A DNA stretch of 64,000 nucleotides from Candidatus Rokubacteria bacterium 13_1_40CM_68_15 (lineage in GTDB: Bacteria; Methylomirabilota; Methylomirabilia; Rokubacteriales; CSP1-6): NCBI GenBank assembly GCA_001917585.1, contig MNEG01000048.1:23362-87361 (forward strand), given 5' to 3'. The translations under genes were made by a program, and so were the position numbers. Each line of letters opens with the position of its first letter. Within the stretch, counting starts at the first letter, position 1. This document shows, piece after piece, positions 1 through 46,353 of this stretch. The notes under the pieces are model-generated. The model saw only the letters and a list, made by a program, of their open reading frames with translations, searched no databases and was not told the origin of the DNA.

Positions 1-663
1 GGCATGCGGCGTCGCATCATCGAAGAGTGCCTCATCGACGGTGAGCGCTGGGGGACCGTGTCGCAGGGCGGGATCGGATTCGACCAGATCTTCATCGCGT
101 CGTGCCGGCGCCGCGAGCTCGAGGGCCTGAGCCTGGCCGAGATCGCACGGCAGTCGGGCACCTCTCCCGCGGATTCGCTGATGAACCTGCTGCTCGAGCA
201 GACGTGCACCGTAGGGATGGTGAGCTTCTCGCAGAGCCTCGACAACGTGGCGAAGGTCCTCGCCCATCCCCTGCTCATGATCGGCTCCGACTCCATTCCG
301 CTGTTCGCCGGCGACGGCGACAAGCCGGGCAAGCCGCACCCGCGGACCTACGGGACCTTTCCCCGCGTTCTCGGCGAGTACGCGCGGGACCGCGGCCTGT
401 TCTCGCTGGAGACCGCGGTCCACAAGATGACGGGCATGCCGGCCGCCCGGCTGCGTCTTCCGAAGCGTGGTCTCCTGCGCGAGGGCTTCGCCGCCGACAT
501 CGCCGTCTTCAACCCGGCCACCGTCAGGGACGAGTCGACCTACGCCGACCCGCACCGCTATCCGACGGGGATTTCGTACGTTATCGTCAACGGCGCCGCG
601 GTGGTGGACGGCGGGCGGTTCGCCTCGTCGCGGCCGGGGCGTATCCTCAGGGCGGCTCACTAG
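1..663 (+). CDS. N-acyl-D-amino-acid deacylase (D-aminoacylase) family amidohydrolase, C-terminal part; the 5' end lies outside the window
   Basis: The open frame runs from base 1. The translation (GSDSIPLF...HPRTYGTFPRVLGEY...GLLREGFAADIAVFNP...VIVNG) matches my recollection of the D-aminoacylase C-terminal region. Confidence 0.7.
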   Translation, partial: GMRRRIIEECLIDGERWGTVSQGGIGFDQIFIASCRRRELEGLSLAEIARQSGTSPADSLMNLLLEQTCTVGMVSFSQSLDNVAKVLAHPLLMIGSDSIPLFAGDGDKPGKPHPRTYGTFPRVLGEYARDRGLFSLETAVHKMTGMPAARLRLPKRGLLREGFAADIAVFNPATVRDESTYADPHRYPTGISYVIVNGAAVVDGGRFASSRPGRILRAAH

Positions 664-2222: not shown

Positions 2223-3089
2223 GTGAGACGCTTCCAGCTCGCTCTCCCGCGCAACATCGACGAGTGCGTGAAGTTTCTCGCCGAGCGAGGACCCGAGACC
2301 AAGGTCATCGCGGGCGGGACCGATCTGCTGCCCCAGATGAAGAACGGGCTCCTCAAGCCGGCCGCGGTGGTCGATCTCTCCGGCGTGGCCGACCTGCGCA
2401 CCCTGCGGCGTCAGGACGGCAGCGGCCTCCGCGTCGGCGCCTCCGTGACGGCGCGCGAGATCGAGCGGGACGCGTACGTCCGCTCGGCGTATCCGGCGCT
2501 CGCCGAGAGCGGCGCGCTGGTCGGGTCGGTTCAGATCCGAAATCTCGCGACCGTGGGCGGCAACCTGTGCAACGCGGCGCCGTCGGCCGACATGGCGCCG
2601 CCGCTCCTGGCTCTCGAGGCCGAAGCCGTCGTCGCCGGTCCCCGCGGTCGCCGCCGGGTTTCTCTGTCCGATTTCTTCACCGGCGTGCGACGCACCGTGC
2701 TGGCGCCCGACGAGCTGCTCGTCGAGCTGATCGTGCCGGCGCTGGGGCCCCGAAGCGGCGGGCAGTACCTGCGCCACACACCACGCCGCGAGCTCGACAT
2801 CGCCGTAGTCGGCGTGGCCTCGCAGATCACGATGTCGGATGGCGTCTGCGCCAAGGCGAGGATCGCGCTCGCCGCCGTGGCGCCGACGCCGATACGGGCG
2901 ACCGCCGCCGAGCAGGCGCTGGAAGGCCGGCCGCTGACGGCCGAGCAGATCGGGCGGGCCGCCACGCTCGCGGTCGAGGCGGCGCGGCCGATCAGCGATC
3001 AGCGCGGCTCGGCCGATTTCCGCCGTCATCTCGTGGCAGTCTTGACCCGCCGTACCCTGACGACGGCGCTCGAACGCGCCGCTCGCTGA
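2223..3089 (+). CDS. Xanthine dehydrogenase/CO dehydrogenase family, FAD-binding medium subunit (CoxM-like)
   Basis: A GTG start at 2223 gives VRRFQLALPRNIDE...VIAGGTDLLPQMK, typical of the molybdopterin dehydrogenase FAD-binding domain. The longer ORF from 2016 overlaps the ALDH gene. Confidence 0.85.
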   Translation: MRRFQLALPRNIDECVKFLAERGPETKVIAGGTDLLPQMKNGLLKPAAVVDLSGVADLRTLRRQDGSGLRVGASVTAREIERDAYVRSAYPALAESGALVGSVQIRNLATVGGNLCNAAPSADMAPPLLALEAEAVVAGPRGRRRVSLSDFFTGVRRTVLAPDELLVELIVPALGPRSGGQYLRHTPRRELDIAVVGVASQITMSDGVCAKARIALAAVAPTPIRATAAEQALEGRPLTAEQIGRAATLAVEAARPISDQRGSADFRRHLVAVLTRRTLTTALERAAR

Positions 3090-3108
3090 GTCTCCTGGAG
3101 GGATTCTC

Positions 3109-3591
3109 GTGGCCAAGCAGGTGCTGAGCTTCACGCTGAACGACAGCGAGACCGACGTGCTCGTCCAGCCCTACGTGACGTTACTGGATGCGCTCCGCGA
3201 GGATCTCGAGCTGACGGGGCCCAAGGAAGGCTGCGGCACCGGCGATTGCGGCGCGTGCACCGTGCATCTCGACGGCAAGCCGGTGGCGAGCTGTCTCGTG
3301 CTGGCTCTCCAGGCCCGGGGCCGCTCCGTGCGCACGATCGAGGGACTGGGCCGCTTCGACGCCCTGCATCCGCTCCAGGACGCCTTCGTGAGGCTCGGCG
3401 TGCCACAGTGCGGGTTCTGCATCCCCGGAGTGCTCATGGCGGCCGCGGCGCTGCTCGCCGAGAATCCGCACCCGAGCGAGGAAGAGATCCGCTACGGGAT
3501 CGCCGGTAATCTCTGCCGCTGCACCGGCTACACGAAGATGCTGGCGGCGATCACCGAGGCCGCGGGCGTCGCGCCCGCCCGGAGGGCTTGA
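3109..3591 (+). CDS. (2Fe-2S)-binding small subunit of the molybdenum hydroxylase (CoxS-like)
   Basis: Cys clusters CGTGDCGACTV, QCGFCIPG and CRCTGY are present. GTG start with ggaggg 8 nt upstream. Confidence 0.9.
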   Translation: MAKQVLSFTLNDSETDVLVQPYVTLLDALREDLELTGPKEGCGTGDCGACTVHLDGKPVASCLVLALQARGRSVRTIEGLGRFDALHPLQDAFVRLGVPQCGFCIPGVLMAAAALLAENPHPSEEEIRYGIAGNLCRCTGYTKMLAAITEAAGVAPARRA

Positions 3592-3595
3592 GTCC

Positions 3596-5926
3596 ATGGC
3601 CACGATGAAGACCACGCGCGACGTGAAGGGCGTCGGGCTCGCCATCCCGCGCCCGGACGGCCCCGAAAAGGTCACCGGCCAGGTCCAGTACGTCGCCGAT
3701 CTGAAGCCGCGCGGCCTGCTGCACGCCAAGCTGTTCCGCAGTCCGCACGCCCACGCGCGCGTCGTCAGCATCGACACGACGCGGGCCCGCGCGCTTCCGG
3801 GAGTGCGCGCGGTGCTCACCGCCGCCGACATCCCCGAGCTGAAGCGCAAGGCGCCAACGCGCGCTCACGCCGTGCTGGCGATCGACCGCGTGGTCTTCGT
3901 GGGGCAACCGATCGCGGCCGTCGCCGCTGACGAGCTGGCGATCGCCGAAGAAGCCCTCGACCTCATCGAGGTTCGGTACGAGGTGCTGCGCGCCGCCGTC
4001 GATCCGCTCGAGTCCATGAAGCCGGGCGCGCCGCCCGTGGCCGACGCAGGAACCGAGGCGGACACCAGCGAAGCGCTCGCCCACGGCAGCGTGGCGGGCG
4101 TGGCGACCGAGGCGAAGCCGTCGAAAGCGGTCAACATCTCCCAGCAGGCGAAGCTGCAGCGTGGCGACGTCGCCAAGGGATTCGCCGAATCCGACGTCGT
4201 GATCGAGAAGACCTATCGCGTGCCGATGGTCCACCAGGGCTACCTCGAGCCGCACGCCGTGCTGGCCCAGTGGGATACCAACGGCCTGCTGACGCTCTGG
4301 GTGAGCACGCAAGGGTCGTTCAACACACGCTCCGAGGTCGCCGACGTGCTGGAGCTGCCGGAGAACCGCATCAAGGTGATCCCGATGGAGTGCGGCGGCG
4401 GCTTCGGCGGCAAGATCCGGGCGCTGTGCGAGCCGATCACGGCGATCCTCGCTCGGGCCACCGGCCGTCCGGTACGTTACGTGATGACGCGGCGGGAGGA
4501 ACTGGAGGCCGGCAATCCGGCCCCCCAGGTCATCATCCGTCTGAAGACGGGCGTCAAGCGGGACGGCACGCTCATGGCCCTGGAGGCCGAGTCGGTCATC
4601 GAGTCTGGCGCGTTCTCCGGGGCGGTGCTCACGGTGAGCGGCGTCTTCCTCGCCAGCCTGTACCTCTGGCCCGCCTTCGAGGTCCGGGGCTTCGAGGTCC
4701 TTACCCACAAGCCGAGCATCGCCGCCTACCGTGCGCCTGTCGCCCCCCACACGATCTTTGCGCTCGACTCGCACATGGAGCAGATCGCCCGCGTCCTGGG
4801 CGTGGACCCCGTCGAGTTCCGGCTCCGCCACCTGCAGCGCGAAGGCAGCCCGATGGCCAACAACCAGCCGTGGCTGAACAACGGCGGCGTGGAGGTGCTG
4901 ACGCGGATCGCCGAGCATCCGTTCTGGAAGCAGCGTGCGGAGTGGAAGGCCAGCGGCGACGCGCGGCGCCTCCGCGGGACCGGGCTCGCGCTGGGTGGGT
5001 GGCTGGGCGGGCTGCAGCCGACCGGCGCCACCGTGCGTCTCAACCCCGACGGGTCACTCAGCGTGCTCACCGGCCAGGTGGACATCGCCGGCACCAACAT
5101 CGCGCTGGCCCAGATCGCCGCGTCCGCCTACGGCATCGACGTCGACAAGGTCCGCATCACCACCGGCGACACCGACGTCGCCCCGGTCACGGGTCTCAGC
5201 GCCGGCAGCAAGACCGTCTACACCGTTGGTGTGGCCGTGATGGAAGCTGCCAAAGACGCGCGCAACCAGACGCTGGAGATCGCCGCCAAGGAGATGGAGG
5301 CCTCGATCCACGACCTCGAGATCGAGAACGAGCGCGTCGTCGTGCGCGGCCTGCCCGATCGTGGGGTCACGCTGGCCCAGATCGGCAAGAAGGGCAACCT
5401 CTACATGTCGAAGGTGCCGCCGGTCCTCGGCGTGAGCCACCCGGCGTTCTCACAGCAGGCGCCGGCGTTCGCGGCCGAGCTGGCGCGGATCGAGGTCGAT
5501 CCCGAGACGGGCGACGTCACGCTCCACGGCTTCGTGGTCGTCCAGGACGTCGGCAAGGCCATCAATCCGCTCGGGGTCGAGGGACAGATGCAAGGCGGCG
5601 CCGTGCAGAGTCTCGGGATGGCGCTGACCGAGGCGCTCACCTACGACGATGCCGGCCGGCTGACGAATCCGAGCCTGCTCGATTACCGCAAGCTGACCGC
5701 TGCCGACCTGCCGAACATCGAGACCATCATCGTGGAGAAGCCGTCGCCGGCCGGCCCGTTCGGCGCGCGCGGCGTCGGCGAGCCACCGATCGTGCCCGCG
5801 CCGGCCGCCATCGCCAACGCGGTCCACGACGCGACCGGCGTGCGGCTCACCGAGCTGCCGCTCACGCCCGAGCGGATCGCCCTGGCCATCGCGGCCCAGC
5901 CGGCGGCACGCCGCCCGGCGAGCTAG
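3596..5926 (+). CDS. Molybdopterin-binding large subunit of a xanthine dehydrogenase/aldehyde oxidase family enzyme
   Basis: 776 aa with an N-terminal a/b-hammerhead-like region (KVTGQVQYVADL...HAKLFRSPHAHARV) and GGGFGGK. It lies immediately after the FAD and FeS subunit genes. Confidence 0.9.
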   Translation: MATMKTTRDVKGVGLAIPRPDGPEKVTGQVQYVADLKPRGLLHAKLFRSPHAHARVVSIDTTRARALPGVRAVLTAADIPELKRKAPTRAHAVLAIDRVVFVGQPIAAVAADELAIAEEALDLIEVRYEVLRAAVDPLESMKPGAPPVADAGTEADTSEALAHGSVAGVATEAKPSKAVNISQQAKLQRGDVAKGFAESDVVIEKTYRVPMVHQGYLEPHAVLAQWDTNGLLTLWVSTQGSFNTRSEVADVLELPENRIKVIPMECGGGFGGKIRALCEPITAILARATGRPVRYVMTRREELEAGNPAPQVIIRLKTGVKRDGTLMALEAESVIESGAFSGAVLTVSGVFLASLYLWPAFEVRGFEVLTHKPSIAAYRAPVAPHTIFALDSHMEQIARVLGVDPVEFRLRHLQREGSPMANNQPWLNNGGVEVLTRIAEHPFWKQRAEWKASGDARRLRGTGLALGGWLGGLQPTGATVRLNPDGSLSVLTGQVDIAGTNIALAQIAASAYGIDVDKVRITTGDTDVAPVTGLSAGSKTVYTVGVAVMEAAKDARNQTLEIAAKEMEASIHDLEIENERVVVRGLPDRGVTLAQIGKKGNLYMSKVPPVLGVSHPAFSQQAPAFAAELARIEVDPETGDVTLHGFVVVQDVGKAINPLGVEGQMQGGAVQSLGMALTEALTYDDAGRLTNPSLLDYRKLTAADLPNIETIIVEKPSPAGPFGARGVGEPPIVPAPAAIANAVHDATGVRLTELPLTPERIALAIAAQPAARRPAS

Positions 5927-7180: not shown

Positions 7181-7875
7181 TGGATCTCGTTCTCGACGGC
7201 GTCCGCCAGGCGCTTGCCCTGCTGGCATCCGGCGATGCCGAGATCCGTGCGGTCCTCTGGCTGTCGTTGCTGGTCTCGAGTACCGCGACGTTCGTGGCAC
7301 TGCTCGTCGGCGTTCCCGCCGGCGTGGTGCTCGCCCTCGGCCGCTTTCCGGGGCGGCGGTTGCTCATCAGCGCGGTGAACGCCGGCATGGGCCTGCCCCC
7401 GGTCGTGGTCGGGCTCTTCGTCTCGATCCTGCTCTGGCGGAGCGGCCCGCTCGGAGCGCTGGAGATCCTCTACACCCCGGCCGCGCTGATCGTGGCTCAG
7501 GCGGTCATCGCCTGGCCGATCGTCACCGGGATCACGCTGGCCGCCGTGCAGAACGTCCCGGAAGCCTTCCGTCTCCAGCTGAAGGCGCTCGGCGCCTCGC
7601 GCACCCAGATAGCCTGGGTCGTGCTCCGGGAGGCGCGCCTGCCGATGCTGGCGGCGATCATGGCGGGCTTCGGCGCCGTCATCTCCGAGATCGGCGCCTC
7701 GCTGATGGTCGGCGGCAACATCAAGGGGCAGACGCGCACGCTGACGACGGCGATGGTCCTGGAAACCGGCAAAGGAAACTTCGACTCCGCCATCGCGCTG
7801 GCGGTCCTGCTGCTCGTGCTGATCTTTCTCGTCAACTGGGGACTCACGAGCGTCCAGCAGCGCCGGACGCCTTGA
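7180..7875 (+). CDS. tupB: Tungstate ABC transporter permease (TupB-type)
   Basis: 231-aa polytopic membrane protein directly after tupA (TAGTG overlap), with an ABC permease EAA-like region (LGASRTQIAWVVLREARLP). Confidence 0.75.
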   Translation: MDLVLDGVRQALALLASGDAEIRAVLWLSLLVSSTATFVALLVGVPAGVVLALGRFPGRRLLISAVNAGMGLPPVVVGLFVSILLWRSGPLGALEILYTPAALIVAQAVIAWPIVTGITLAAVQNVPEAFRLQLKALGASRTQIAWVVLREARLPMLAAIMAGFGAVISEIGASLMVGGNIKGQTRTLTTAMVLETGKGNFDSAIALAVLLLVLIFLVNWGLTSVQQRRTP

Positions 7876-7898
7876 GCACGCGGGGTATACTCGCGGCG

Positions 7899-8654
7899 AT
7901 GCGCCTCCTGGTCGCGCTGGTCGTCACGCTCATGGCGGTCGTCACGACGGCTCGGGCCGCGCCGTCCCCGCTGACGGTGTTCGCGGCCAGCGATCTCGCG
8001 CTGGCCTTCCAGGAGATCGTCCCGCGCTTCGAGAAGGCCACCGGCAGCAGCGTCACGCTGGTCCTGGGGTCGTCGGGGAACTTCGCGCAGCAGATCGAAA
8101 ACGGCGCGCCCGCCGACGTGTTCTTCTCGGCCGACGTCGCCTTCGTCGATCGGCTCGTGCAGCGCGGCTTCATCATCCCGGAGACGCGCGCGATCTATGG
8201 CCAGGGACGCATCGTGCTGGCCGCGGCGAAGTCGGCGGGGCCGAAGCTCACCGATCTCCGTCAGCTCCTTGAGCCGCGCGTCCGGCACGTGAGCATCGCC
8301 AACCCCGTCCATGCACCGTATGGACGAGCCGCGGAGCAGGCCCTGCGCGCCGCCGGGCTCTGGGACTCGGTGAAACCGAAGCTCGTGTACGCCGAGAACA
8401 TCCGCCAGGCGCTGCAATACGTGCAGACCGGCGCTGTCGAGGCGGGCATCGTCGCGCTCGCCATCGCCAGCGTGCCGGAGATCGAGTGGGTGGCCATCGA
8501 CCCGCGCCTCCACGCGCCCCTCAATCAGGCCGCCGGCGTGCTGCGGCGCAGCGGACGGCCGGAGCTCGGTATGGCACTCGTGCAGTTCGTCAATGGGGCG
8601 GAGGGACGGCCGATCATGAAGCGGTTCGGCTTCATGCTGCCGGGCGAGTTCTGA
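7899..8654 (+). CDS. modA: Molybdate ABC transporter substrate-binding protein
   Basis: LTVFAASDLALAFQEI...GSSGNFAQQIENGAPADVFFSAD is ModA-like. I prefer the ATG at 7899, which begins a signal peptide MRLLVALVVTLMAVVTTARA. The TTG at 7872 is the alternative. Confidence 0.85.
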   Translation: MRLLVALVVTLMAVVTTARAAPSPLTVFAASDLALAFQEIVPRFEKATGSSVTLVLGSSGNFAQQIENGAPADVFFSADVAFVDRLVQRGFIIPETRAIYGQGRIVLAAAKSAGPKLTDLRQLLEPRVRHVSIANPVHAPYGRAAEQALRAAGLWDSVKPKLVYAENIRQALQYVQTGAVEAGIVALAIASVPEIEWVAIDPRLHAPLNQAAGVLRRSGRPELGMALVQFVNGAEGRPIMKRFGFMLPGEF

Positions 8655-13710: not shown

Positions 13711-15612
13711 TCACGTCCACCGTGCGCGCGGCACGTAGCTCTCGCGCCACGCGTCGAGCATCAGCAGCGCCCACAGGATCTTCCGGTGGTCGCTCTGGCC
13801 GGCCACGTGCTCGGCGACGAGCCTTGTCACCACGGCGGCGTCGAAGAGGCCGACACGCGTCACCCGGTCGGCGGCGAGCCGCGTCTCGAGCACACCGCGG
13901 AGCGGGCCGCGCAGCCATGGTCCGATCGGCACGCCGAACCCTTGCTTACGGCGGTGGAGGATCGACGCCGGCAGGAGGCCGTCGAGCGCCCGCTTGAGGA
14001 TGTACTTCGTGGTCCACCCGCGCAGCTTGAGGTGGGCTGGCATGCGACAGGCCAGCTCGACGAGGTTGTGGTCCAGGAACGGCGCCCGTACCTCGAGCCC
14101 GCACGCCATGCTCGCGCGGTCGACGTTCACGAGATTCTGGTCGGCGAGATAGAACTTGCAGTGCTGGTAGATCAGCCGCTCGATCGGGTCCCGCGTTCTC
14201 GACTCCGCCACCACCCCCGGCAGGTCCTCGTGAGGGTCGAACCGCTCGCACGCCGCTCGGACCGCCGGCGAGAAGAGCCGGGACTGCTCGGACGCCAGGA
14301 GTCCGCCGAGGAGGAGCTGAGTGCGCAGCTCGGCGCCGTGTGGGAGGCCGCGGAAAAACTGCTTGAGCAGGAACTCGGGGCTCCCGTACCGCGCCGACGG
14401 CCGCAGCCGATTCACCGGCCGCGCGGCCACGGCTTGCGCCCATCGAGGCAGGCGCCCGATCCAGCGCGCGCCACGATCAGCCAGGAACGTGGGATATCCG
14501 CAGAAGAGCTCGTCGCCGCCATCCCCGCTGAGCGTCACGGCGACCGAGTGGCGCGCCAGGCGCGACAGCGCGTAGGTGGGGAGGAACGAGCCGTCGACCA
14601 GAGGCTCGTCGAGGAGGCCGCCCACGTCGTCGACGAGGGCGAGCATATCGTGTGGCGAAAATATGGTTTCCTCGTGCTCGGTCCCGCAATGCTGCGCGAC
14701 GAGGCGCGCGTAGGGTCGCTCGTCGAAGCTCGCGTCGGCGAAGCCGATCGCGAACGTCTTGAGGGGCCGTCCGCCCGTCATGCGCGCCGCCAGGGCGACG
14801 ATCGCACCGGAGTCGATTCCACCGCTCAGGAACATGCCCAGGGGGACGTCGCTGATCATCCGCTGCCTGACGGACGTCTCGAGCTGCTGCATCAGCCGGT
14901 CGGCCCATTCGGTTTCGGAGACCGGGCGCTCTGGTCGGAAGTCGAGATCCCAGTAACGGTGGAGGCTCGGCTTCTCTCCGGGCGACACCGTCAGGAGCTG
15001 ACCCGGCAGGAGCTTCTGGACGCCGGCGAAGATCGAGTACGGCGCGGGGACGTACTCGAAGGCCAGGTAGCGCGACAGGCTCTCGAGCGAGAGGACGGTT
15101 GGTACCAAAGGATGGGCGAGAAGGGCCCGCAGCTCGGACCCGAAGACGAAGGTATCGGGCCCAGCGTAATAGTAGAGCGGCTTCTCCCCCATCCGATCGC
15201 GGGCCAGCAGCAGGCGCCGGGCAGACGTGTCCCAGATCGCGAGCGCGAACATGCCATCGAACTGGGCGACGCAGTCGTCGCCATACACCTCGTAGGCGTG
15301 CGCGATGACCTCGGTGTCCGAGCGCGTGCGGAAGCGGTGACCGTGCCGCTCCAGACGCTCGCGCAGGTGAGCGAAGTTGTAAATCTCGCCGTTCTGAATC
15401 ACGCGGACGGAACCATCCTCGTTGGCGAGCGGCTGTTGCCCGGTCTCGAGATCGATGATGCGGAGCCGCCGGGCCCCGAGGGCGACCTGGTCGTCGACGT
15501 AGAAGCCCTCGTCGTCCGGCCCTCGATGGCGTAGCGAGTCCGTCATACGTCGGAGCGGGCCGCGAGCATCCTCGGCCCGTCCGTTCACGAAGAATCCGGC
15601 GATCCCACACAT
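13711..15612 (-). CDS. asnB: Asparagine synthase (glutamine-hydrolysing)
   Basis: N-terminal MCGIAG nucleophile, RGPDDEG, and a SGGIDS PP-loop in the synthetase domain. 633 aa. Confidence 0.9.
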   Translation of the reverse strand: MCGIAGFFVNGRAEDARGPLRRMTDSLRHRGPDDEGFYVDDQVALGARRLRIIDLETGQQPLANEDGSVRVIQNGEIYNFAHLRERLERHGHRFRTRSDTEVIAHAYEVYGDDCVAQFDGMFALAIWDTSARRLLLARDRMGEKPLYYYAGPDTFVFGSELRALLAHPLVPTVLSLESLSRYLAFEYVPAPYSIFAGVQKLLPGQLLTVSPGEKPSLHRYWDLDFRPERPVSETEWADRLMQQLETSVRQRMISDVPLGMFLSGGIDSGAIVALAARMTGGRPLKTFAIGFADASFDERPYARLVAQHCGTEHEETIFSPHDMLALVDDVGGLLDEPLVDGSFLPTYALSRLARHSVAVTLSGDGGDELFCGYPTFLADRGARWIGRLPRWAQAVAARPVNRLRPSARYGSPEFLLKQFFRGLPHGAELRTQLLLGGLLASEQSRLFSPAVRAACERFDPHEDLPGVVAESRTRDPIERLIYQHCKFYLADQNLVNVDRASMACGLEVRAPFLDHNLVELACRMPAHLKLRGWTTKYILKRALDGLLPASILHRRKQGFGVPIGPWLRGPLRGVLETRLAADRVTRVGLFDAAVVTRLVAEHVAGQSDHRKILWALLMLDAWRESYVPRARWT

Positions 15613-15627
15613 CGTCGATTTACGGGT

Positions 15628-17283
15628 TCATCGCGCTGAAGCGCTCTCGTTCCGGCACGGAGGTCCGTCCGCCGGGGTGCCGTTCACATCGGCCAGGACG
15701 TACAGGTCGCCGCGGAAGACTTCCGCGCGCAGGGTGCGCGTGGGCAGGCAAGCGTCGCGGCGACGGATGAACAGCAGCTCGTCCTGCTTCAGCAGCAATG
15801 CGACATGCCGATCTCCGACCAGGCCGCGCAGTGCCTCCACGTTCGGAAGCTCGACCGGCTGCGACGGAAGATAGAACATCAGGCCGGTGGTGAACTTCCG
15901 GTCGAGGTAACCGACCGGCGCGCCGTTCGGCAGCGCCGCGGCGAGACGGGCCGCCACTTCCCTGGTTGGATACGCGCGGTTGACGCCCGGCGTGTACGCG
16001 GCGACCTGCAAGAGCAGCATGACGAGCAGGCTGCCGACGCTCACCGCCATGGCCGCCTCGTTCGCCCGGTGCCGGCGCAGGAGCATCCAGGCGCCGGGCG
16101 CCACCGCGCCGGCAATCGCCGCCATGCCCAGGCCGAGACCGCGGTTGAGGTCCGTCAGGCGCGGCAGGGTGCCGATGGTCATCGGCGAAATGGCGATGAC
16201 GACGCCGCCGACCACGATCACCATCACCCCCACCGCCAGAGGTACGCTCATCCAGCGGCGCTCCCTCGCCGAGCACGTCGCCCAGGCCCACGCGATGAGA
16301 AGCGCGAGTGCCGGGTAGCAGGGCAGGAAGTGCACCGACCGCGGCGACAGGAAGACGCCGAAGATCACGAGAACGAGGCCGGCCCACAGGAGGGGAGTCA
16401 GGAGGAGCCGCCACGATGTCCGCCATCGGCGGCCGAGAATGAGGACGGCGCCGGGTACGAGGAGCGTCCAGGGCAGGAATCCCACTCCGATCGCTTCCGG
16501 CACATAGAGGATGTCGCTGTGACGACGCTCGGTCATCTCGTTGCCGAACACGGCGATGACAGCTTCGAAGTATCTGCCGACATCGGCGTTCCCGCTCGCA
16601 GCCAGTCCGAGCCAGACGACGTGGAGCCCCACGAGAAAGGCGACTGCCAGACCGATGTCCGTGAGCGCGCGTCGGGACCACCGTCCGAGCAGGGTCACGG
16701 CCACCACGACGGCCAGAAGTGGCACCAGCCCGACCGGGCCCTTGGTGAGACAGGCACAGCCGAGAGCGAGACCGAAGACGAGAGCGTGGCGGCGCTTGCC
16801 CTCGTCGAGCCAGCACGCCCCGCTCCAGAACGCGAGCGTCATCCAGAACACGAGCACCATCTCGAGACGGCCCATGCGGGCCCACGCCACGAACATCCAG
16901 CTCGACGCGAGGATGCCAGCGGCCACGAGGCCGATGGCCGGGGTGGCGATCCGGGCGCCGATCGCATAGGTCACGGCGGCGGTGCCGGCAGCGGCCATCA
17001 CGGACGGGAAGCGCAGCGACCATTCGGTCACGGCACGGGGCGAGGACAGCGCCACGAGCCAGTGAAACAGAGGCGGCTTGTGGGCGTACACGCGGCCCCC
17101 GAGATGGGGGATCAGCCAGTGCCCTCGCTCCACGATGTCGCGGGCGACGAGTCCGTCGCGCGCCTCGTCCTTTGTCCACACGTTCTGTCCGCCAAGGTCC
17201 ACCAGCAGGGCGAGCGCGGTGACGACGAGCACCACGAGGGGAACGAGAGCTTCCTTCGCCATCGGTTGCCAGCGCGGGTTCAC
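15628..17283 (-). CDS. GT39/ArnT-like polyprenyl-phosphate-dependent glycosyltransferase (membrane protein)
   Basis: Polytopic 551-aa protein with an N-terminal DEARDGLVARDIVERGHW...HKPPLFHWL loop typical of the ArnT/PMT family. The start could instead be the internal MAKE codon about 21 nt downstream. Confidence 0.7.
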   Translation of the reverse strand: MNPRWQPMAKEALVPLVVLVVTALALLVDLGGQNVWTKDEARDGLVARDIVERGHWLIPHLGGRVYAHKPPLFHWLVALSSPRAVTEWSLRFPSVMAAAGTAAVTYAIGARIATPAIGLVAAGILASSWMFVAWARMGRLEMVLVFWMTLAFWSGACWLDEGKRRHALVFGLALGCACLTKGPVGLVPLLAVVVAVTLLGRWSRRALTDIGLAVAFLVGLHVVWLGLAASGNADVGRYFEAVIAVFGNEMTERRHSDILYVPEAIGVGFLPWTLLVPGAVLILGRRWRTSWRLLLTPLLWAGLVLVIFGVFLSPRSVHFLPCYPALALLIAWAWATCSARERRWMSVPLAVGVMVIVVGGVVIAISPMTIGTLPRLTDLNRGLGLGMAAIAGAVAPGAWMLLRRHRANEAAMAVSVGSLLVMLLLQVAAYTPGVNRAYPTREVAARLAAALPNGAPVGYLDRKFTTGLMFYLPSQPVELPNVEALRGLVGDRHVALLLKQDELLFIRRRDACLPTRTLRAEVFRGDLYVLADVNGTPADGPPCRNESASAR

Positions 17284-17392
17284 GATGGTGCCCTATGCCG
17301 GGGCCCGCGTAGCATGCTCCTTTCCTATACGGCGCGGACGACCACACAGTCAAGGGCGGATGGACCTACGGGAGCAGGCACATCGACGGCGG

Positions 17393-32323: not shown

Positions 32324-33085
32324 ATGATCGTGACGGTCGGCGTCGTCGGCGACTTCGATCCCGGATTCCGTGCCCATCGCGCGACGGACGCGGCCCTCGG
32401 TCACGCGGCCCACGCGTTGTCCATCGCCGTCGACGTGCGCTGGTTGCCCACCGCGGCGCTGACGGCCGCGGACGCGGCGCCGACCCTCGAGCGCTGCGAC
32501 GGCCTGTGGATCGCGCCGGGCAGCCCGTATCAAAGCCTCGACGGAGCGCTGCGCGCCATCCGATTCGCGCGTGAACGGGATTGGCCCCTCGTGGCTACCT
32601 GAGGGGGCTTCCAACATGCTCTGTTAGAGTATGCGCGCAACGTCGCCGGGCTCCCGAACGCCCACCACGCCGAGTACGGTGGCGAGGCCGCGTCGGCGCT
32701 CATCGCGCCGATTGCGTGCGCCGTCACCGGCCGCGCTCCCGGCGCCGCCGCGCTGTCCGGCCCCCGGATGAAGGTCAGCGTGGTGGCCGGCACGCGCGCC
32801 GCCACGATCTACGGGCACCACGTGATCGAGGAGGAGTTCTTCTGCAACTACGGACTGAATCCTGAGTACCAGCAGCGCCTGGTGGCGGGCGGGCTCTCGC
32901 TGACCGGTTTCGATGAGCGCGGCGAGGTGCGGATGGCTGAGCTGCGCGATCGGCGCTTCTATCTGGCCACGCTGTTCCTTCCCCAGCTCGCCTCGACCGA
33001 GTCCAGCCCTCATCCGGTGGTCGTCGCGTTCGTCCGAGCGTCGGCGGCGTTCGCCGCGTCGCGTCCCGTCGCCTCGCTGACGTGA
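32324..33085 (+). CDS. CTP-synthase-C-terminal-domain-like (class I amidotransferase fold) protein with an in-frame TGA at 32600-32602 in place of the nucleophile Cys. Candidate selenoprotein; the alternative is a pseudogene.
   Basis: The ORFs at 32324-32602 and 32768-33085 are in the same frame, with no other stop between them. The joined translation reads ...RFARERDWPLVAT[TGA]GGFQHALLEYARNVAG...FYLATLFLPQLASTESSPHPVVVAFVRAS. It parallels E. coli PyrG ...PYFGICLGMQVALI.YAR.VA...[28 protein letters not shown]. Confidence 0.65.
32615..32633 (+). promoter_or_regulatory. Candidate bacterial SECIS hairpin (8-bp stem with one G-U pair, GUU loop), 12 nt downstream of the TGA at 32600
   Basis: catgctct-gtt-agagtatg. 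It is built from the codons CAT GCT CTG TTA GAG TAT, which look rare for this GC-rich sequence. Confidence 0.55.
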
Positions 33086-39897: not shown

Positions 39898-40227
39898 TTG
39901 CTAGAATCACGGGCCGTGGCCGCCGAGCCTCGTCGAACGACTCCCTGGCTGATCGTCGTCGCCGCGGTCCTGCTGGCAGGACTTCTGGCTTACACCGTCT
40001 TTGCCGGCTGGGTTCCGACCAAGCAGCGGATGACACGTCTCGAGGCGGAGATGAAGGACGTCTACGCGCGGGAAGCGGCGCTGCAGACGAGGCTGGCCCA
40101 GCAGGAGCAACGGTCGACGATGCGCGAGCAGCAGCTCAATGCGCTGCGCAGCGAGCGCGACGAGCTCGCCCGCCGCGTCGAAGACCTCGAGCGGGAGCTG
40201 GCCGCCGCCCGCGCTCGCCGCCGTTAA
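39898..40227 (+). CDS. Membrane-anchored coiled-coil protein (109 aa)
   Basis: One TM helix (WLIVVAAVLLAGLLAYTVFAGW) followed by a heptad-like region rich in E, R, Q and L. The start is TTG at 39898 or GTG at 39916. Confidence 0.55.
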   Translation: MLESRAVAAEPRRTTPWLIVVAAVLLAGLLAYTVFAGWVPTKQRMTRLEAEMKDVYAREAALQTRLAQQEQRSTMREQQLNALRSERDELARRVEDLERELAAARARRR

Positions 40228-40898
40228 GCTCCCAGTCCCAACAGCCGGGGCAAGCGCCGGCCGAAGACCTCGGCGGCGACCTTGAACGTCTCGACCACGG
40301 TTGCCGCGGCGCCGTCGGCGCGCGTCGCGTTCCACCACCGACCCAGATGCTCTTCCGACCGGAAGAAGTTGATCGTGTGTCAGAGGCCGGCGCAGGCCTT
40401 CGCCCGGATGTCCTCGCGCTTGGCCAGCCACACCATCGCCGGCGTCGGCTCGAGCGGCCCGTCGGGGGCGATGCGCAGCACGAGTGGTTCGCCGCAGTCG
40501 TGGCAGCGGGAGTGGATCGTGAGCGTCTCGCCCATGAGCGTGGCGGCGCCAAGGGCATCGAACGCGCAGCAGGCATACCGGGGGCGTCCATCGGCAGGCT
40601 CGAGACGGAACGCGTTCATCCTGGCGCTGAACGGATAGGCGAGGACGATGGCGCCGGCCTCGACCAGCACCAGATCGAACTCGTCCAGCTCCGCGACGGC
40701 GGCGGCGACCTCGGTGGGCTCGTGATCCGGCAGCAACCCGGCCACGGGAAGCGCGCCTTCGCCAGCGGCCAGGCGACGAATGATCGCACCGAGGACGCGC
40801 CGAGCAACCGGACCGATGGCCTCACGCTCCGTCCACCTGGCCTGGAACGCGGCATCCATCAGCTCCTCGGCGAGCTTGACGGCGTAGCCTGACGCCAC
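40224..40898 (-). CDS. MerB-like organomercurial (alkylmercury) lyase family protein with an in-frame TGA at 40380-40382 aligned to catalytic Cys159 of MerB. Candidate selenoprotein; the alternative is a truncated gene or pseudogene.
   Basis: The listed ORF 40380-40898 ends ...KACAGL[TGA]. The same frame continues HTINFFRSEEHLGRWWNATRADGAAATVVETFKVAAEVFGRRLPRLLGLGA to a TAA at 40224. RYACCAFDALG matches MerB YAWCALDTL (Cys96/Asp99). [TGA]HTINFF matches CCHVHFF, gapless on the FF pair. Confidence 0.65.
40350..40367 (-). promoter_or_regulatory. Candidate bacterial SECIS hairpin (7-bp stem, GGUC loop), 12 nt downstream of the TGA at 40380-40382
   Basis: The minus strand reads uga-cacacgaucaac-UUCUUCC-GGUC-GGAAGAG. 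As I recall, GGUC is also the apical loop of the E. coli fdhF SECIS. Confidence 0.55.
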
Positions 40899-43680: not shown

Positions 43681-46353
43681 ATGTCGCCCGAGCTGTATCG
43701 CCGGGCCCGGCGCGCCGAGGCCAAGGCCGAGCGTGCGGACGACCGGCGGCGACTCCGGCTCGACTTCCTCCGTGCTGCCCTCGCCGAGGGGCTCGACTCT
43801 GTGAAGGTCATGCACGCCGGCGGCGCCTCCGGTCAGGAGTGCGTGCAGGCCCATGCCCGTGTGGTGGACGACCTTGTGCAGTCGCTGACGAAGCTCATTA
43901 CGACCGACACCGACGGTCTGGCGGCGGCGCCGCTCGTGGTCGTCGCGCTCGGCGGCTATGGCCGAGGCGAGCTCCATCCGTCGTCGGACATCGACCTCAT
44001 GGTGATCCACGACCGTGAGCTGTCCCCGTATGTCCAGCGGGTGACCCAGGAGCTGCTCTACACGTTGTGGGACCTCGGATTGCAGATCGGTCACAGCCTG
44101 CGCTCGCTGCCGGACTGTGTCGCGATCGCCCGGACCGATCTGGCCAGCCGCACCTCCATGCAGGCCGCCAGGTTCCTGGCCGGCGACCGTCGGTTGTTCG
44201 CCAAGTTCCGCCGTGTGCTCGAGGAGAACGTCTACCACCGGGACTTCGAGCAATTCCTGGCCGCGACCCTGGCCGAGCGCGATCAGCGCTACCGCAAGTA
44301 CGGCGCGTCGCCCTACATCGGCGAGCCGAACATCAAGGAATCGGCGGGCGGCCTGCGCGACATGCACACGGCGATGTGGCTGGCCGCCGCCAAGTTCGGC
44401 ACGCGCACGCTGCGGGAGCTCAGCGAGAAAGGGCTGATCACGCCGCGCGAGCAGGCGCACACGGACGCGGCCCTGACGTTCCTGTGGCGTGTCCGCAACG
44501 AGCTGCATTTTCTGGCCGGCCACAAGAACGACGTGCTCGGCCGGGACGTGCAGCCGGCCATCGCGCGGAACTTCGGCTACGAGGGTGACGAGCGGAGCCT
44601 CGACGTCGAGCGCTTCATGCGCGAGTACTACCTGCACGCGCGCGCCATCCATCGGGTCTCGAGGCGGCTCATCGCACGCTGCCAGGAGACGGTCACGGTG
44701 CGCGGAGCCGCCGAGCGGCGCAACCGCCACCAGGCCCTGGCCGACGGTCTGGTCTTCATCGATGGCCGCCTCCACCTCGCCGACCGCGACAGCGCCGTGT
44801 TCGCCACCGATCCGACGCGGCTCATGAAGGTGTTCTGGCATCTCCATCGACTCGGTTGCGAGCTTTCCCTCGAGCTGGAGCGCGCGGTGGAGGACTCGCT
44901 CGACCTGATCGACGACGGCTTCCGACGCTCGCCGGTCGTGCGGGAGCTCTTTCTCGACATCTGCCGGACGTGGGGGCGGGTGGCGGTGACCCTCTCCGAG
45001 ATGCACGAGCTCGGCGTGCTCGGGCGCTATCTGCCCGAGTTCGGCGCGCTGACCTGCCTGGTGCAGTACGACGTCTACCACAAGTTCTCGGCCGATCAGC
45101 ACTCGCTGCTGGCCGTCGAGCACATGGAGGCGCTGGCGCCGGGACAGTCGGCGGAGTCCGAGGGCGCCGCGCAGGTCTTCAGCGAGGTCGAGAAGCCCGA
45201 GCTGCTGATGCTCGGCATGCTGTTGCACGACATCGGTAAGGCGAAGGGCCACGGCCACGTCAAGAAGGGCATCCCGCTCATCCAGGCACTCTGCGCGCGC
45301 CTCGACCTGCCGGTCGCCGACGCGGCCGTCGTCGAGTTCCTGGTCGCCCATCACCTCACGATGTCCCACGTCGCCCAGCGTCGTGACATCGACGATCCGA
45401 AGACGATCGCCGACTTCGCCGCCGCCGCCAGCGATCCCCAGCGCCTCCGGATGCTCTACCTGCTGACGTGGGCGGACATGCGCGCGGTCGGGCCGGGCGT
45501 GCTCACGCCGTGGCAGGCGGTGATCCTGCACGAGCTCTACGCGCGCACGATGGCCCGCGTGACGGGAGGCCGCCAGGAGCGCCCGAACCGCGCCCAGCTG
45601 GCCGAGCGCGTGGTGCCGCTCGTCAAGCACGACGTGTCCGTGCAGGCGGTGAAGGGCCACCTGGCCATGATGTCTGAGCGCTATCTGGCGACGACGAGCG
45701 CGCAGCGCATCGCGGAACACCTGCGCCTGCTCCAGCGCCTCGAGGAGGCGCCGGTGGCGACCGAGCTGTTTCACCACCCCGATCTCGGCTCCTCGGACCT
45801 GGTCGTCGTCACCCGAGATCTGCCCGGTCTCTTCTCGCTGATCGCCGGCACGCTGGCCGCCCACGGGGTGAACATCATGTCGGCCCAGATTTCCACGCGC
45901 GGTGACGGCATCGCCATCGACACCTTCCAGGTGAACGATCCGACCGGGGAGACGATCACGTCGCCGGCCCACTGGCGGCGCACGCTGGCCGCGCTGCGCT
46001 CCGTGTTGACCGGTGAGGAGAGCGTGGACGCCCTGCTCGAGCGGCGCCGCGCCGCCGGCCGGCTGCCGACCGTGGTACCGGAGCCGCCCAGGATCGGGAT
46101 CGACAACACGCTGAGCGACGCCTTCACCGTCGTGGAAGTGAAGTGCCCGGACCGTCTCGGACTGCTCTATCTCATCACGCGCACGCTGTCGGCGTGCGGC
46201 CTCGACATCGGCAGCGCACGCATCGCGACCGAGATCGATCAGGCGTACGACACGTTCTACGTCCACGACGGCCAGGGCCGCCGCGTCGAGGATCCGGATG
46301 CCCTCGAGCGCTTGCGACAGGCGCTCGAGCAGGCGCTGGTGCAGCCCCTGTGA
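43681..46353 (+). CDS. glnD: [Protein-PII] uridylyltransferase/uridylyl-removing enzyme
   Basis: Nucleotidyltransferase domain GGYGRGELHPSSDIDL, HD domain LLHDIGK, and two C-terminal ACT-like domains. 890 aa. Confidence 0.9.
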   Translation: MSPELYRRARRAEAKAERADDRRRLRLDFLRAALAEGLDSVKVMHAGGASGQECVQAHARVVDDLVQSLTKLITTDTDGLAAAPLVVVALGGYGRGELHPSSDIDLMVIHDRELSPYVQRVTQELLYTLWDLGLQIGHSLRSLPDCVAIARTDLASRTSMQAARFLAGDRRLFAKFRRVLEENVYHRDFEQFLAATLAERDQRYRKYGASPYIGEPNIKESAGGLRDMHTAMWLAAAKFGTRTLRELSEKGLITPREQAHTDAALTFLWRVRNELHFLAGHKNDVLGRDVQPAIARNFGYEGDERSLDVERFMREYYLHARAIHRVSRRLIARCQETVTVRGAAERRNRHQALADGLVFIDGRLHLADRDSAVFATDPTRLMKVFWHLHRLGCELSLELERAVEDSLDLIDDGFRRSPVVRELFLDICRTWGRVAVTLSEMHELGVLGRYLPEFGALTCLVQYDVYHKFSADQHSLLAVEHMEALAPGQSAESEGAAQVFSEVEKPELLMLGMLLHDIGKAKGHGHVKKGIPLIQALCARLDLPVADAAVVEFLVAHHLTMSHVAQRRDIDDPKTIADFAAAASDPQRLRMLYLLTWADMRAVGPGVLTPWQAVILHELYARTMARVTGGRQERPNRAQLAERVVPLVKHDVSVQAVKGHLAMMSERYLATTSAQRIAEHLRLLQRLEEAPVATELFHHPDLGSSDLVVVTRDLPGLFSLIAGTLAAHGVNIMSAQISTRGDGIAIDTFQVNDPTGETITSPAHWRRTLAALRSVLTGEESVDALLERRRAAGRLPTVVPEPPRIGIDNTLSDAFTVVEVKCPDRLGLLYLITRTLSACGLDIGSARIATEIDQAYDTFYVHDGQGRRVEDPDALERLRQALEQALVQPL

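Follow-up and report, generated by a model that had tools for sequence, protein, structure and literature searches.

The organomercurial lyase MerB has four signature residues, Cys96, Asp99, Cys117 and Cys159 (PMC8261052), and a relative with selenocysteine (Sec) aligned to the last of them has been described. This relative, SaoL (NF040728, Haft & Gwadz), is a MerB-like lyase for organometallic compounds that is encoded in the SAO (selenocysteine-assisted organometallic) locus; its CU motif stands about 50 residues from the C-terminus (bioRxiv 10.1101/2022.07.06.499078). SaoL is already listed in reviews. Here we analyze a MerB-like gene in a 64-kb stretch of DNA from Candidatus Rokubacteria bacterium 13_1_40CM_68_15 (contig MNEG01000048.1, positions 23,362 to 87,361), which we call the window. 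The gene is crossed by an in-frame UGA at the codon equivalent to Cys159, and a hairpin lies just downstream of the UGA. We put at about 0.85 the probability that it is a Sec-decoded gene for a full-length, 224-residue MerB-family enzyme of Candidatus Rokuibacteriota (Methylomirabilota), a prediction that draws mainly on comparison with related loci.

A MerB-Family Gene Crossed by an In-Frame UGA

The minus-strand open reading frame (ORF) 40380-40898 has a GTG start and encodes 172 residues, ending ...AKACAGL at a TGA (40382..40380). Past the TGA the frame continues without a stop for 51 codons (HTINFFRSEEHLGRWW...LGLGA) up to a TAA (40226..40224), giving 172 + 1 + 51 = 224 codons. A preliminary description of this DNA had reported the ORF, the 51-codon extension and the total length, and all three agree with the sequence and its frame.

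The same description assigned the product to the MerB family, and it is a member of that family. The Pfam MerB profile (PF03243; cut-off, as gathering score, 27 bits) is matched from end to end only when the TGA is read through (positions 1-126 of 126; 77.5 bits, E 1.2e-21). The truncated 172-residue ORF matches positions 1-77 of 126 with 45 bits, and the 51 post-UGA residues on their own match the MerB C-terminus (profile positions 87-126, E 0.0087). The window sequence also matches MerB and MerB2 in the Protein Data Bank (PDB). The fold was tested by proxy on P0011, a relative with Cys at the UGA column that is 52% identical to the window protein. Its AlphaFold model has a predicted local distance difference test (pLDDT) score of 88 and a predicted template-modelling score (pTM) of 0.87, and the only PDB structures that it matches at E <= 1e-3 are those of MerB and MerB2, with template-modelling (TM) scores of 0.63-0.79. 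The region equivalent to the 51-codon tail is well ordered in this Cys-form model.

The catalytic residues can be placed by alignment to the sequence of MerB in the PDB (1s6l/3f0p). RYACCAFDALG aligns on LYAWCALDTL, which carries Cys96 and Asp99, and [TGA]-HTINFF aligns without gaps on C159-C160-HVHFF, so that the TGA stands in the Cys159 column. Both placements had been proposed in the preliminary description; both hold against the PDB sequence, and that of the UGA is further borne out by the Cys that full-length relatives carry there. C111 and D114 are invariant in the alignment of the clade, as is C132 of the CHDC motif, which aligns to Cys117. C135 is present in 90% or more of the members and is nearly invariant in the subclades labelled a and b. 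The literal Cys159 signature is absent from the window protein: the column is a UGA, read here as a predicted Sec codon, and there is no Cys codon. Published merB screens would miss the Sec form for this reason.

The UGA Column across Relatives

A scan of species-representative genomes gave 69 related loci, almost all of them in metagenome-assembled genomes (MAGs) of Candidatus Rokuibacteriota/Methylomirabilota from soil and groundwater. The closest (L001, MAG AR17) is 84% identical over residues 1-222, and the similarity continues across the TGA. When Cys and UGA were tabulated at this column, as the preliminary description had suggested, 56 of the 69 loci proved to have TGA at the exact position and 9 a Cys codon; the remaining 4 are partial or frameshifted. 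Because the same TGA occurs in 56 independent assemblies, a misread TGC or TGT, any other sequencing error and a recent nonsense mutation are excluded. In these 56 loci about 50 codons are conserved after the TGA, with the pattern x[TLR][LI]NFFRSE[ED]H ... AF.LG..IFG.LL. Full-length Cys forms are found in the protein database (P0011, P0012, P0016 and P0018), with the sequence ...AC[TS]S[ILV]-C-[LT]T[LI]NFFRSEEHL (...ACTSIC-LTLNFFRSEEHL); these relatives continue past the column, and the family does not normally end there. This correspondence of UGA and Cys at a catalytic metal-binding Cys is a classic selenoprotein signature.

Gene callers treat the UGA as a true stop, which would make the locus a pseudogene or the gene for a truncated protein of 172 residues, with a relic frame downstream. 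About a dozen entries of the protein database are called as truncated, P0001-P0009 all having 172 residues. A profile of the 175 positions preceding the Sec column was searched against 1.8 billion cluster representatives; of the 36 close matches extending to the profile's end, 30 stop no more than 2 residues from the Sec column. UGA is also the commonest stop codon in this genome, and the window revealed no Sec machinery. Against this alternative stand the retention of the TGA in 56 loci of different species with the frame of about 50 codons intact, and the selection that acts on that frame. For 179 pairs of moderate divergence, the ratio of nonsynonymous to synonymous substitution rates (dN/dS) comes to 0.46 past the UGA and to 0.42 before it (dN/dS and dS with the Jukes-Cantor correction), and the window and L001 differ past the UGA by 9 synonymous changes and 1 nonsynonymous change. 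Since purifying selection on the downstream frame equals that on the upstream part, a relic is excluded; the 51 downstream codons are a genuine MerB C-terminus under purifying selection. A protein ending at the UGA would, moreover, be left without the final helix-strand-helix region and with only one of the two catalytic residues that bind metal. The comparative data effectively refute a true stop, and we regard it as scarcely credible.

Sec-decoded forms, as we take the TGA-bearing members to be, fall into at least three subclades: KAC..L-U-HT, which includes the window protein; ..SL-U-TT; and GDRLSGFL-U-TR, which is without the CxxC motif. Across the clade the motif around the predicted Sec is [LF]-U-[HTLR]. 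A vicinal Cys-Cys pair stands at the Cys96 position in 51 of 55 Sec forms (ACCA[FI]D; window 40566-40571), and the Cys forms all have AVCAID. Canonical MerB, unlike the Sec forms, has its vicinal pair at 159-160. One possibility is that the extra Cys of this pair, C110, is an auxiliary or resolving thiol that has moved here and evolved together with Sec.

Some MAGs hold two Sec-MerB-like copies on different contigs: L024 and L026 in MFD02242.bin.2.34, L044 and L048 in MFD02242.bin.2.73, and L021 and L059, the last of which is frameshifted. These double copies are either paralogues or the result of strain co-assembly. Members with TGA also occur at L018 (on DASRWT010000029.1), L039 and L047, whose MAGs carry the labels of the archaeon Candidatus Nitrosocosmicus, Myxococcales and Vicinamibacterales; the archaeal label above all suggests binning contamination rather than a true distribution.

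The Hairpin Downstream of the UGA

Bacterial Sec insertion is directed by a selenocysteine insertion sequence (SECIS). The published bacterial consensus (bSECIS) has an apical loop of 3-9 nt and an upper stem of 4-16 bp, and the first or second base of the loop is G, as a rule with G or U next to it; the UGA-to-loop distance is 16-37 nt and the minimum free energy (MFE) no higher than -7.5 kcal/mol (PMC13188914; PMC10778597). The preliminary description had noted a hairpin, UUCUUCC-GGUC-GGAAGAG, 12 nt past the UGA, and it is present at 40367-40350 (TTCTTCC at 40367-40361, GGTC at 40360-40357, GGAAGAG at 40356-40350). Its 4-nt loop GGUC, 7-bp stem, UGA-to-loop spacing of 19 nt and MFE of -7.5 to -7.8 kcal/mol all lie within the published limits. 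Of 53 unique homologous sequences, 52 have the hairpin in their MFE fold, with a 4-nt loop in 50 and a 7-nt loop in 2, and 97% of cells pair across the homologues. A conserved lower SECIS stem was considered and dropped: the lower pairings vary between individual folds, and RNAalifold retains the upper stem only.

Weighing the Selenoprotein Prediction

Several observations weigh against the prediction of a Sec-decoded gene. Among those that concern the hairpin, its MFE is right at the published threshold, and a 71-nt neighbourhood folded alone does no better than shuffles (z = -0.56), so that any significance of the hairpin must come from comparative data and not from the single-sequence fold. 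The homologue alignment holds 0 double-sided, compensatory changes in the stem; the only changes are one-sided, U-A to U-G in 6 sequences and U-G to U-A in 7. Covariation is absent because the stem is invariant, and the structural support is for the same reason that of conservation. Conservation of the nucleotides is itself partly driven by the protein, the FFRSEE peptide over the hairpin being conserved. One Cys form (L074, with TGT at the Sec column; 596-650, plus strand) has kept a perfect UUUUUCC-GGUC-GGAAGAA hairpin, which may be a fossil SECIS from a recent Sec-to-Cys switch. As to the family assignment, the NCBIfam MerB equivalog cut-offs are missed (62.5 vs 193 bits for NF009710 and 51.9 vs 200 bits for NF033555), and the best E-value on these models among 13 clade members, 7.3e-23, still falls well short of the cut-offs. 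No selA, selB, selC or selD was seen in the 64-kb window or at 60 related loci. ARAGORN found no tRNA in the window and no tRNA-Sec in 60 related loci, and Rfam gave no match in the window; the tRNA and Rfam nulls are uninformative, since the window spans just 64 kb. Around the window gene there are no mer genes, no glutaredoxin and no other functionally suggestive neighbour.

The points on the hairpin could be met by supposing that the UGA is read through and that the GGUC hairpin is a mere by-product of the NFFRSEE peptide, some other signal being behind Sec insertion or plain near-cognate read-through. NFFRSEEH is conserved in the Cys forms as well, and the missing covariation, the MFE at the threshold and the hairpin of L074 would all suit this explanation. 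Because FFRSEE is conserved as protein, a test at synonymous sites was needed, and it was made on 55 Sec-form genes. Within the hairpin Arg is CGG in 55 of 55 genes and Ser is TCG in 53 of 53, although each residue has six codons; elsewhere in the same genes Arg is CGG 23 times, CGC 23 and CGA 6, and another Arg column has CGC 25, CGG 11 and so on. Both hairpin Phe codons are TTC in 55 of 55, compared with 89-96% at three other conserved Phe columns, and Asn is AAC in 53 of 55. The first Glu is the rarer GAA in 49 of 55, whereas Glu elsewhere is GAG in 37 of 49. The Leu before the UGA is CTC in 51 of 52 (the top codon reaches 46-71% in other Leu columns). Over exactly the seven hairpin codons dS is 0.118, about 4.7-fold lower than the 0.55 of the flanks. 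Cys forms with the same peptide vary: L071 has CGC TCC GAG GAG, L072 has TTT TTC CGT TCG GAA GAA and L070 has GAG GAG. In the Cys forms L002 and L003 the peptide itself has changed (FFQSQE and LFRSSE). A by-product of the peptide would account neither for this codon choice nor for a position and loop that fit the published bSECIS model, and we consider it very unlikely. The SECIS-like character claimed for the GGUC hairpin is upheld by its fit to the bSECIS limits and by a synonymous invariance that holds in Sec forms and is relaxed in Cys forms; we regard the hairpin as a well-supported predicted SECIS.

A further alternative accepts recoding through SECIS and SelB but has Cys inserted, by a non-canonical tRNA (SelC*/tRNA-ReC), or a mixture of Cys and Sec, which would leave an ordinary Cys159 MerB-like enzyme. 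Such a tRNA-ReC reads UGA as Cys when a SECIS lies downstream, and is present in some genomes with Sec-type enzymes (PMC13582414). Sequence cannot separate the insertion of Sec from that of Cys, and the comparative signals suit both. In the genomes surveyed there, however, tRNA-ReC was seldom present beyond those of the UXXU type, occurring in about 2.3% of the remaining Sec-type genomes (PMC13582414). Cys insertion also leaves unexplained why more than 50 species keep a UGA and a costly SECIS when UGC, as used in the Cys forms, is one base away, and other classic Sec positions carry UGA in the same genomes. We therefore judge recoding to Cys unlikely and prefer decoding of the UGA as Sec.

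Probable Selenium Use in the Lineage

The indirect evidence is good that the Methylomirabilota lineage of the window uses Sec, as judged from its genes. Sec-type [NiFeSe] hydrogenases are known in Methylomirabilota (PMC13582414), and one Methylomirabilota MAG has 63 predicted selenoprotein genes (PMC13188914). In 11 of the related loci the gene immediately downstream of the MerB-like gene encodes a glutaredoxin in which UGA takes the place of the first Cys of the active site (U-x-x-C). One of the 11 is L074, whose MerB-like gene is a Cys form. Gene calling had cut a Sec-glutaredoxin to 65 residues, with a start just past the active site. Two genes past the Sec-MerB-like gene in L022 and L036 lies a disulfide oxidoreductase with a C-x-x-x-x-U motif (Table 1); it was considered as a canonical MerA and rejected, since it has neither an HMA domain nor a C-terminal Cys pair.

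UGA is otherwise an ordinary stop codon here. About 25 of the 43 ORFs in the window that are supported by GC content at third codon positions (GC3) end in TGA, as do most members of the MerB-like family, and a genome-wide reassignment of UGA is thereby ruled out. The window has a second candidate in-frame UGA, in the ORF 32324-33085, which is probably the first selenoprotein candidate of the preliminary description. With its TGA (32600-32602) read as Cys, the product matches the Pfam class-I GATase family (PF00117, E 4.4e-6) across the TGA, and a hairpin, CAUGCUCU-GUU-AGAGUAUG, begins 15 nt downstream. We take the TGA to fall at the nucleophile Cys of the class-I glutamine amidotransferase. 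Another pair of ORFs on the minus strand (15628-17292 and 13711-15627), with high GC3, the same frame and a single TGA between them, is not a selenoprotein gene but two genes. By eye, the region 13711-17292 encodes a glycosyltransferase-like membrane protein with a true stop and an asparagine-synthase-like protein whose ORF starts MCGIAGF.

Table 1. Location of the MerB-like gene, its parts and other candidate UGA-containing genes (window coordinates unless a related locus is named).
Feature	Location	Strand	Description
MerB-like selenoprotein gene (predicted)	40224..40898	-	GTG start at 40898, 172 codons, UGA (Sec173), 51 codons, TAA 40226-40224; product 224 aa
In-frame UGA, predicted selenocysteine codon, residue 173	40380..40382	-	Equivalent to catalytic Cys159 of R831b MerB
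Predicted bacterial SECIS hairpin	40350..40367	-	7-bp stem UUCUUCC/GGAAGAG (6 Watson-Crick pairs and a terminal U.G), apical loop GGUC 40360-40357; encodes F-F-R-S-E-E
C-terminal 51 codons after the UGA (HTINFFRSEEHLGRWW...AAEVFGRRLPRLLGLGA)	40227..40379	-	MerB C-terminal helix-strand-helix region; overlooked by ordinary gene callers
First catalytic block C110-C111-A-F-D114	40557..40571	-	C111 = MerB Cys96, D114 = Asp99; C110 = extra vicinal Cys, Sec forms only
C132-H-D-C135 motif	40494..40505	-	C132 = MerB Cys117 (structural signature residue); C135 = additional Cys
Second candidate in-frame UGA	32324-33085, TGA 32600-32602	+	...ERDWPLVAT-U-GGFQHALLEYARNVAGL
Sec-glutaredoxin (predicted), 65-80 aa	L022:6674-6910, L036:2663-2899, L021:2552-2791, L020:1885-2124, L074:832-1077	+	U-x-x-C, e.g. 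YTQPGUGACQAEKEF, YWSTAUQSCHAAKEF
Pyridine-nucleotide disulfide oxidoreductase (Pyr_redox_2 and dimerisation domain)	L022 ~7270-8592, L036 ~3010-4347	+	GTCLG[RT]GUIPKK, i.e. C-x-x-x-x-U

Genomic Context and the Link to Mercury

The neighbours of the window gene are hypothetical proteins, an S58 peptidase, a rhomboid protease and a class I/II aminotransferase. An 890-aa ORF at 43681-46353 (plus strand) is GlnD-like, by eye only. A convergent 109-aa ORF (39898-40227, plus strand), with one predicted transmembrane segment and a coiled coil, has its end against the TAA of the MerB-like gene (40224-40226), so that practically no intergenic spacer separates the two. The synteny that the window and L001 share involves unrelated genes, and no conserved operon partner was found for the subclade of the window; nor does a glutaredoxin adjoin the MerB-like gene in either of them. 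In L004-L019 the MerB-like gene is flanked by LigD on its upstream side and by a solute-binding protein on its downstream side. Across the window and the related loci the neighbours include hypothetical proteins, the S58 peptidase, LigD, the solute-binding protein, a rhodanese, a sigma factor and the glutaredoxin.

A connection to mercury is seen in one Cys form. P0016 is encoded directly downstream of a 553-aa merA-like gene (HMA, Pyr_redox_2 and dimerisation domains) in L072:10-6612 (plus strand). The locus also has an AhpC/redoxin gene, merT and merE, followed by Mu-type and IS21 transposition genes, and looks like a mobile mer operon. Its place beside merA, merT and merE links the clade to mercury resistance. 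The window gene had been described as lying outside a mer operon. That is correct insofar as no mer genes are nearby; as a peculiarity of the gene it does not stand, the setting being not unusual and the Cys-form clade member P0016 lying in a mer operon. More than 50% of merB genomes are without merA, and a merB survey that required Cys159 recorded a MerB homologue in just one Rokubacteria genome (PMC8261052). The latter count is consistent with Rokubacterial genes having been overlooked.

A Possible Mechanism

If the gene is decoded as proposed, the hairpin within the coding sequence, 19 nt past the UGA, would act as a SECIS and recruit SelB with Sec-tRNA(Sec) to the ribosome. The UGA in the A site would then be read as selenocysteine, and translation would run on without a stop into the last 51 codons. 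The active site of the product would consist of Cys111, Asp114 and Sec173, equivalent to Cys96, Asp99 and Cys159 of MerB. By analogy with MerB, the thiolate of Cys111 and the selenolate of Sec173 may together serve as ligands for the metal in an organomercurial or some other organometallic substance, and Asp114 may protonate the leaving carbon and so break the carbon-metal bond. That an organomercurial is the physiological substrate, and the enzyme an organomercurial lyase in activity, we consider an even bet.

Computational work on MerB indicates that turnover is limited by the detachment of Hg(II) from the cysteines of the active site (PMC4525700). A selenolate, being ionised at neutral pH and a stronger Hg ligand, would speed the capture of substrate but hold Hg tighter. 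Thiol or selenol partners would then strip off the metal, a role for which the vicinal Cys110 is a candidate, as is the adjacent U-x-x-C glutaredoxin of sister clades. It is because of the tighter hold on Hg that the vicinal Cys and the Sec-glutaredoxin are noteworthy as possible hand-off devices. The Sec-glutaredoxin neighbour points to a shared selenol/thiol relay.

Implications

A wider reading of these data is possible, and we offer it tentatively, as one that we doubt rather than expect to hold in full. According to this reading Rokuibacteriota/Methylomirabilota, groups that abound in soil and aquifers, would carry a large, unrecognised clade of Sec-dependent organomercurial or organometal lyases, with at least three subclades and paralogues, in which Sec was gained independently of SaoL and a Sec-glutaredoxin and Sec-oxidoreductase form a selenol relay. 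The clade would be missing from mercury-cycling inventories, and its demethylation capacity with it, because gene callers truncate the genes and merB surveys require Cys159.

Sec-MerB-like genes are systematically mis-annotated as 172-aa fragments. Since surveys that require Cys159 exclude them, the methylmercury-degrading potential of soils and aquifers may be underestimated. If the product is a working Sec-MerB, selenium-assisted carbon-metal chemistry, in the SAO system restricted to anaerobes, would be extended to a phylum that is dominant in soil and groundwater, and to a clade that has Cys-form members in true mer operons. The role of selenium in substrate capture and product release by MerB could be tested on the Sec/Cys pairs that nature provides at Cys159, together with the extra Cys at position 95 that co-varies with them, and an invariant SECIS that doubles as a peptide motif would be a clean model of dual coding constraint.

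Comparison with Known Systems

The gene resembles canonical MerB (R831b; PDB 3F0P/1S6L; EC 4.99.1.2) in fold, in C111, D114 and C132 (Cys96, Asp99 and Cys117) and in length (224 vs 212 aa), and a Cys-form member of its clade adjoins merA, merT and merE. It differs in the predicted Sec at 159, in having His or Thr in place of Cys160, and in the extra residues C110, C135 and C169 of the window protein. Identity is about 25%; the gene is not in a mer operon, and its product scores under the NCBIfam cut-offs.

The predicted SECIS has the main properties of the bSECIS model (bSECISearch): a stem-loop inside the ORF right after the UGA, with a small loop that starts with G and with spacing and MFE in range. 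It departs from the model in its short, fully paired stem, which has no bulged U and no conserved lower stem, in being unusually invariant across a whole family, and in coinciding with the NFFRSEE peptide. The SECIS of E. coli fdhF, the classic case, also has the apical loop GGUC, at nearly the same distance from its UGA. The Sec-glutaredoxin-like proteins (U-x-x-C) are neighbours in 11 loci and are not homologues of the MerB-like protein.

SaoL is the closest parallel in design: both proteins are Pfam MerB members with Sec, here predicted, at the same position, both are routinely truncated in databases, and both have rare Cys members. The window protein is nevertheless not SaoL. It scores 49.5 bits against the NF040728 cut-off of 140, the match being limited to residues 62-144, against positions 47-130 of the 159 in the profile, and none of the 13 clade members tested comes near the cut-off. 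In place of the CU motif of SaoL (as published) it has L-U-H (L-U-H/T in the clade), the vicinal Cys-Cys being at the Cys96 position instead. The nine-gene SAO neighbourhood (SaoB/P/E/C etc.) is absent from the window and the related loci. The hosts differ as well, those of SaoL being strictly anaerobic Firmicutes, spirochaetes and deltaproteobacteria and those of the present clade soil and groundwater Rokuibacteriota/Methylomirabilota. We found no description of a Rokubacterial Sec-MerB clade in the literature, one groundwater-MAG selenoproteome study lying outside that search, and MerB goes unmentioned in the BSepDB and deep-Sep papers. A MerB-type selenoprotein with Sec at the Cys159 position is thus already known through SaoL, and the Rokubacterial clade, as predicted here, is a further and separate one.

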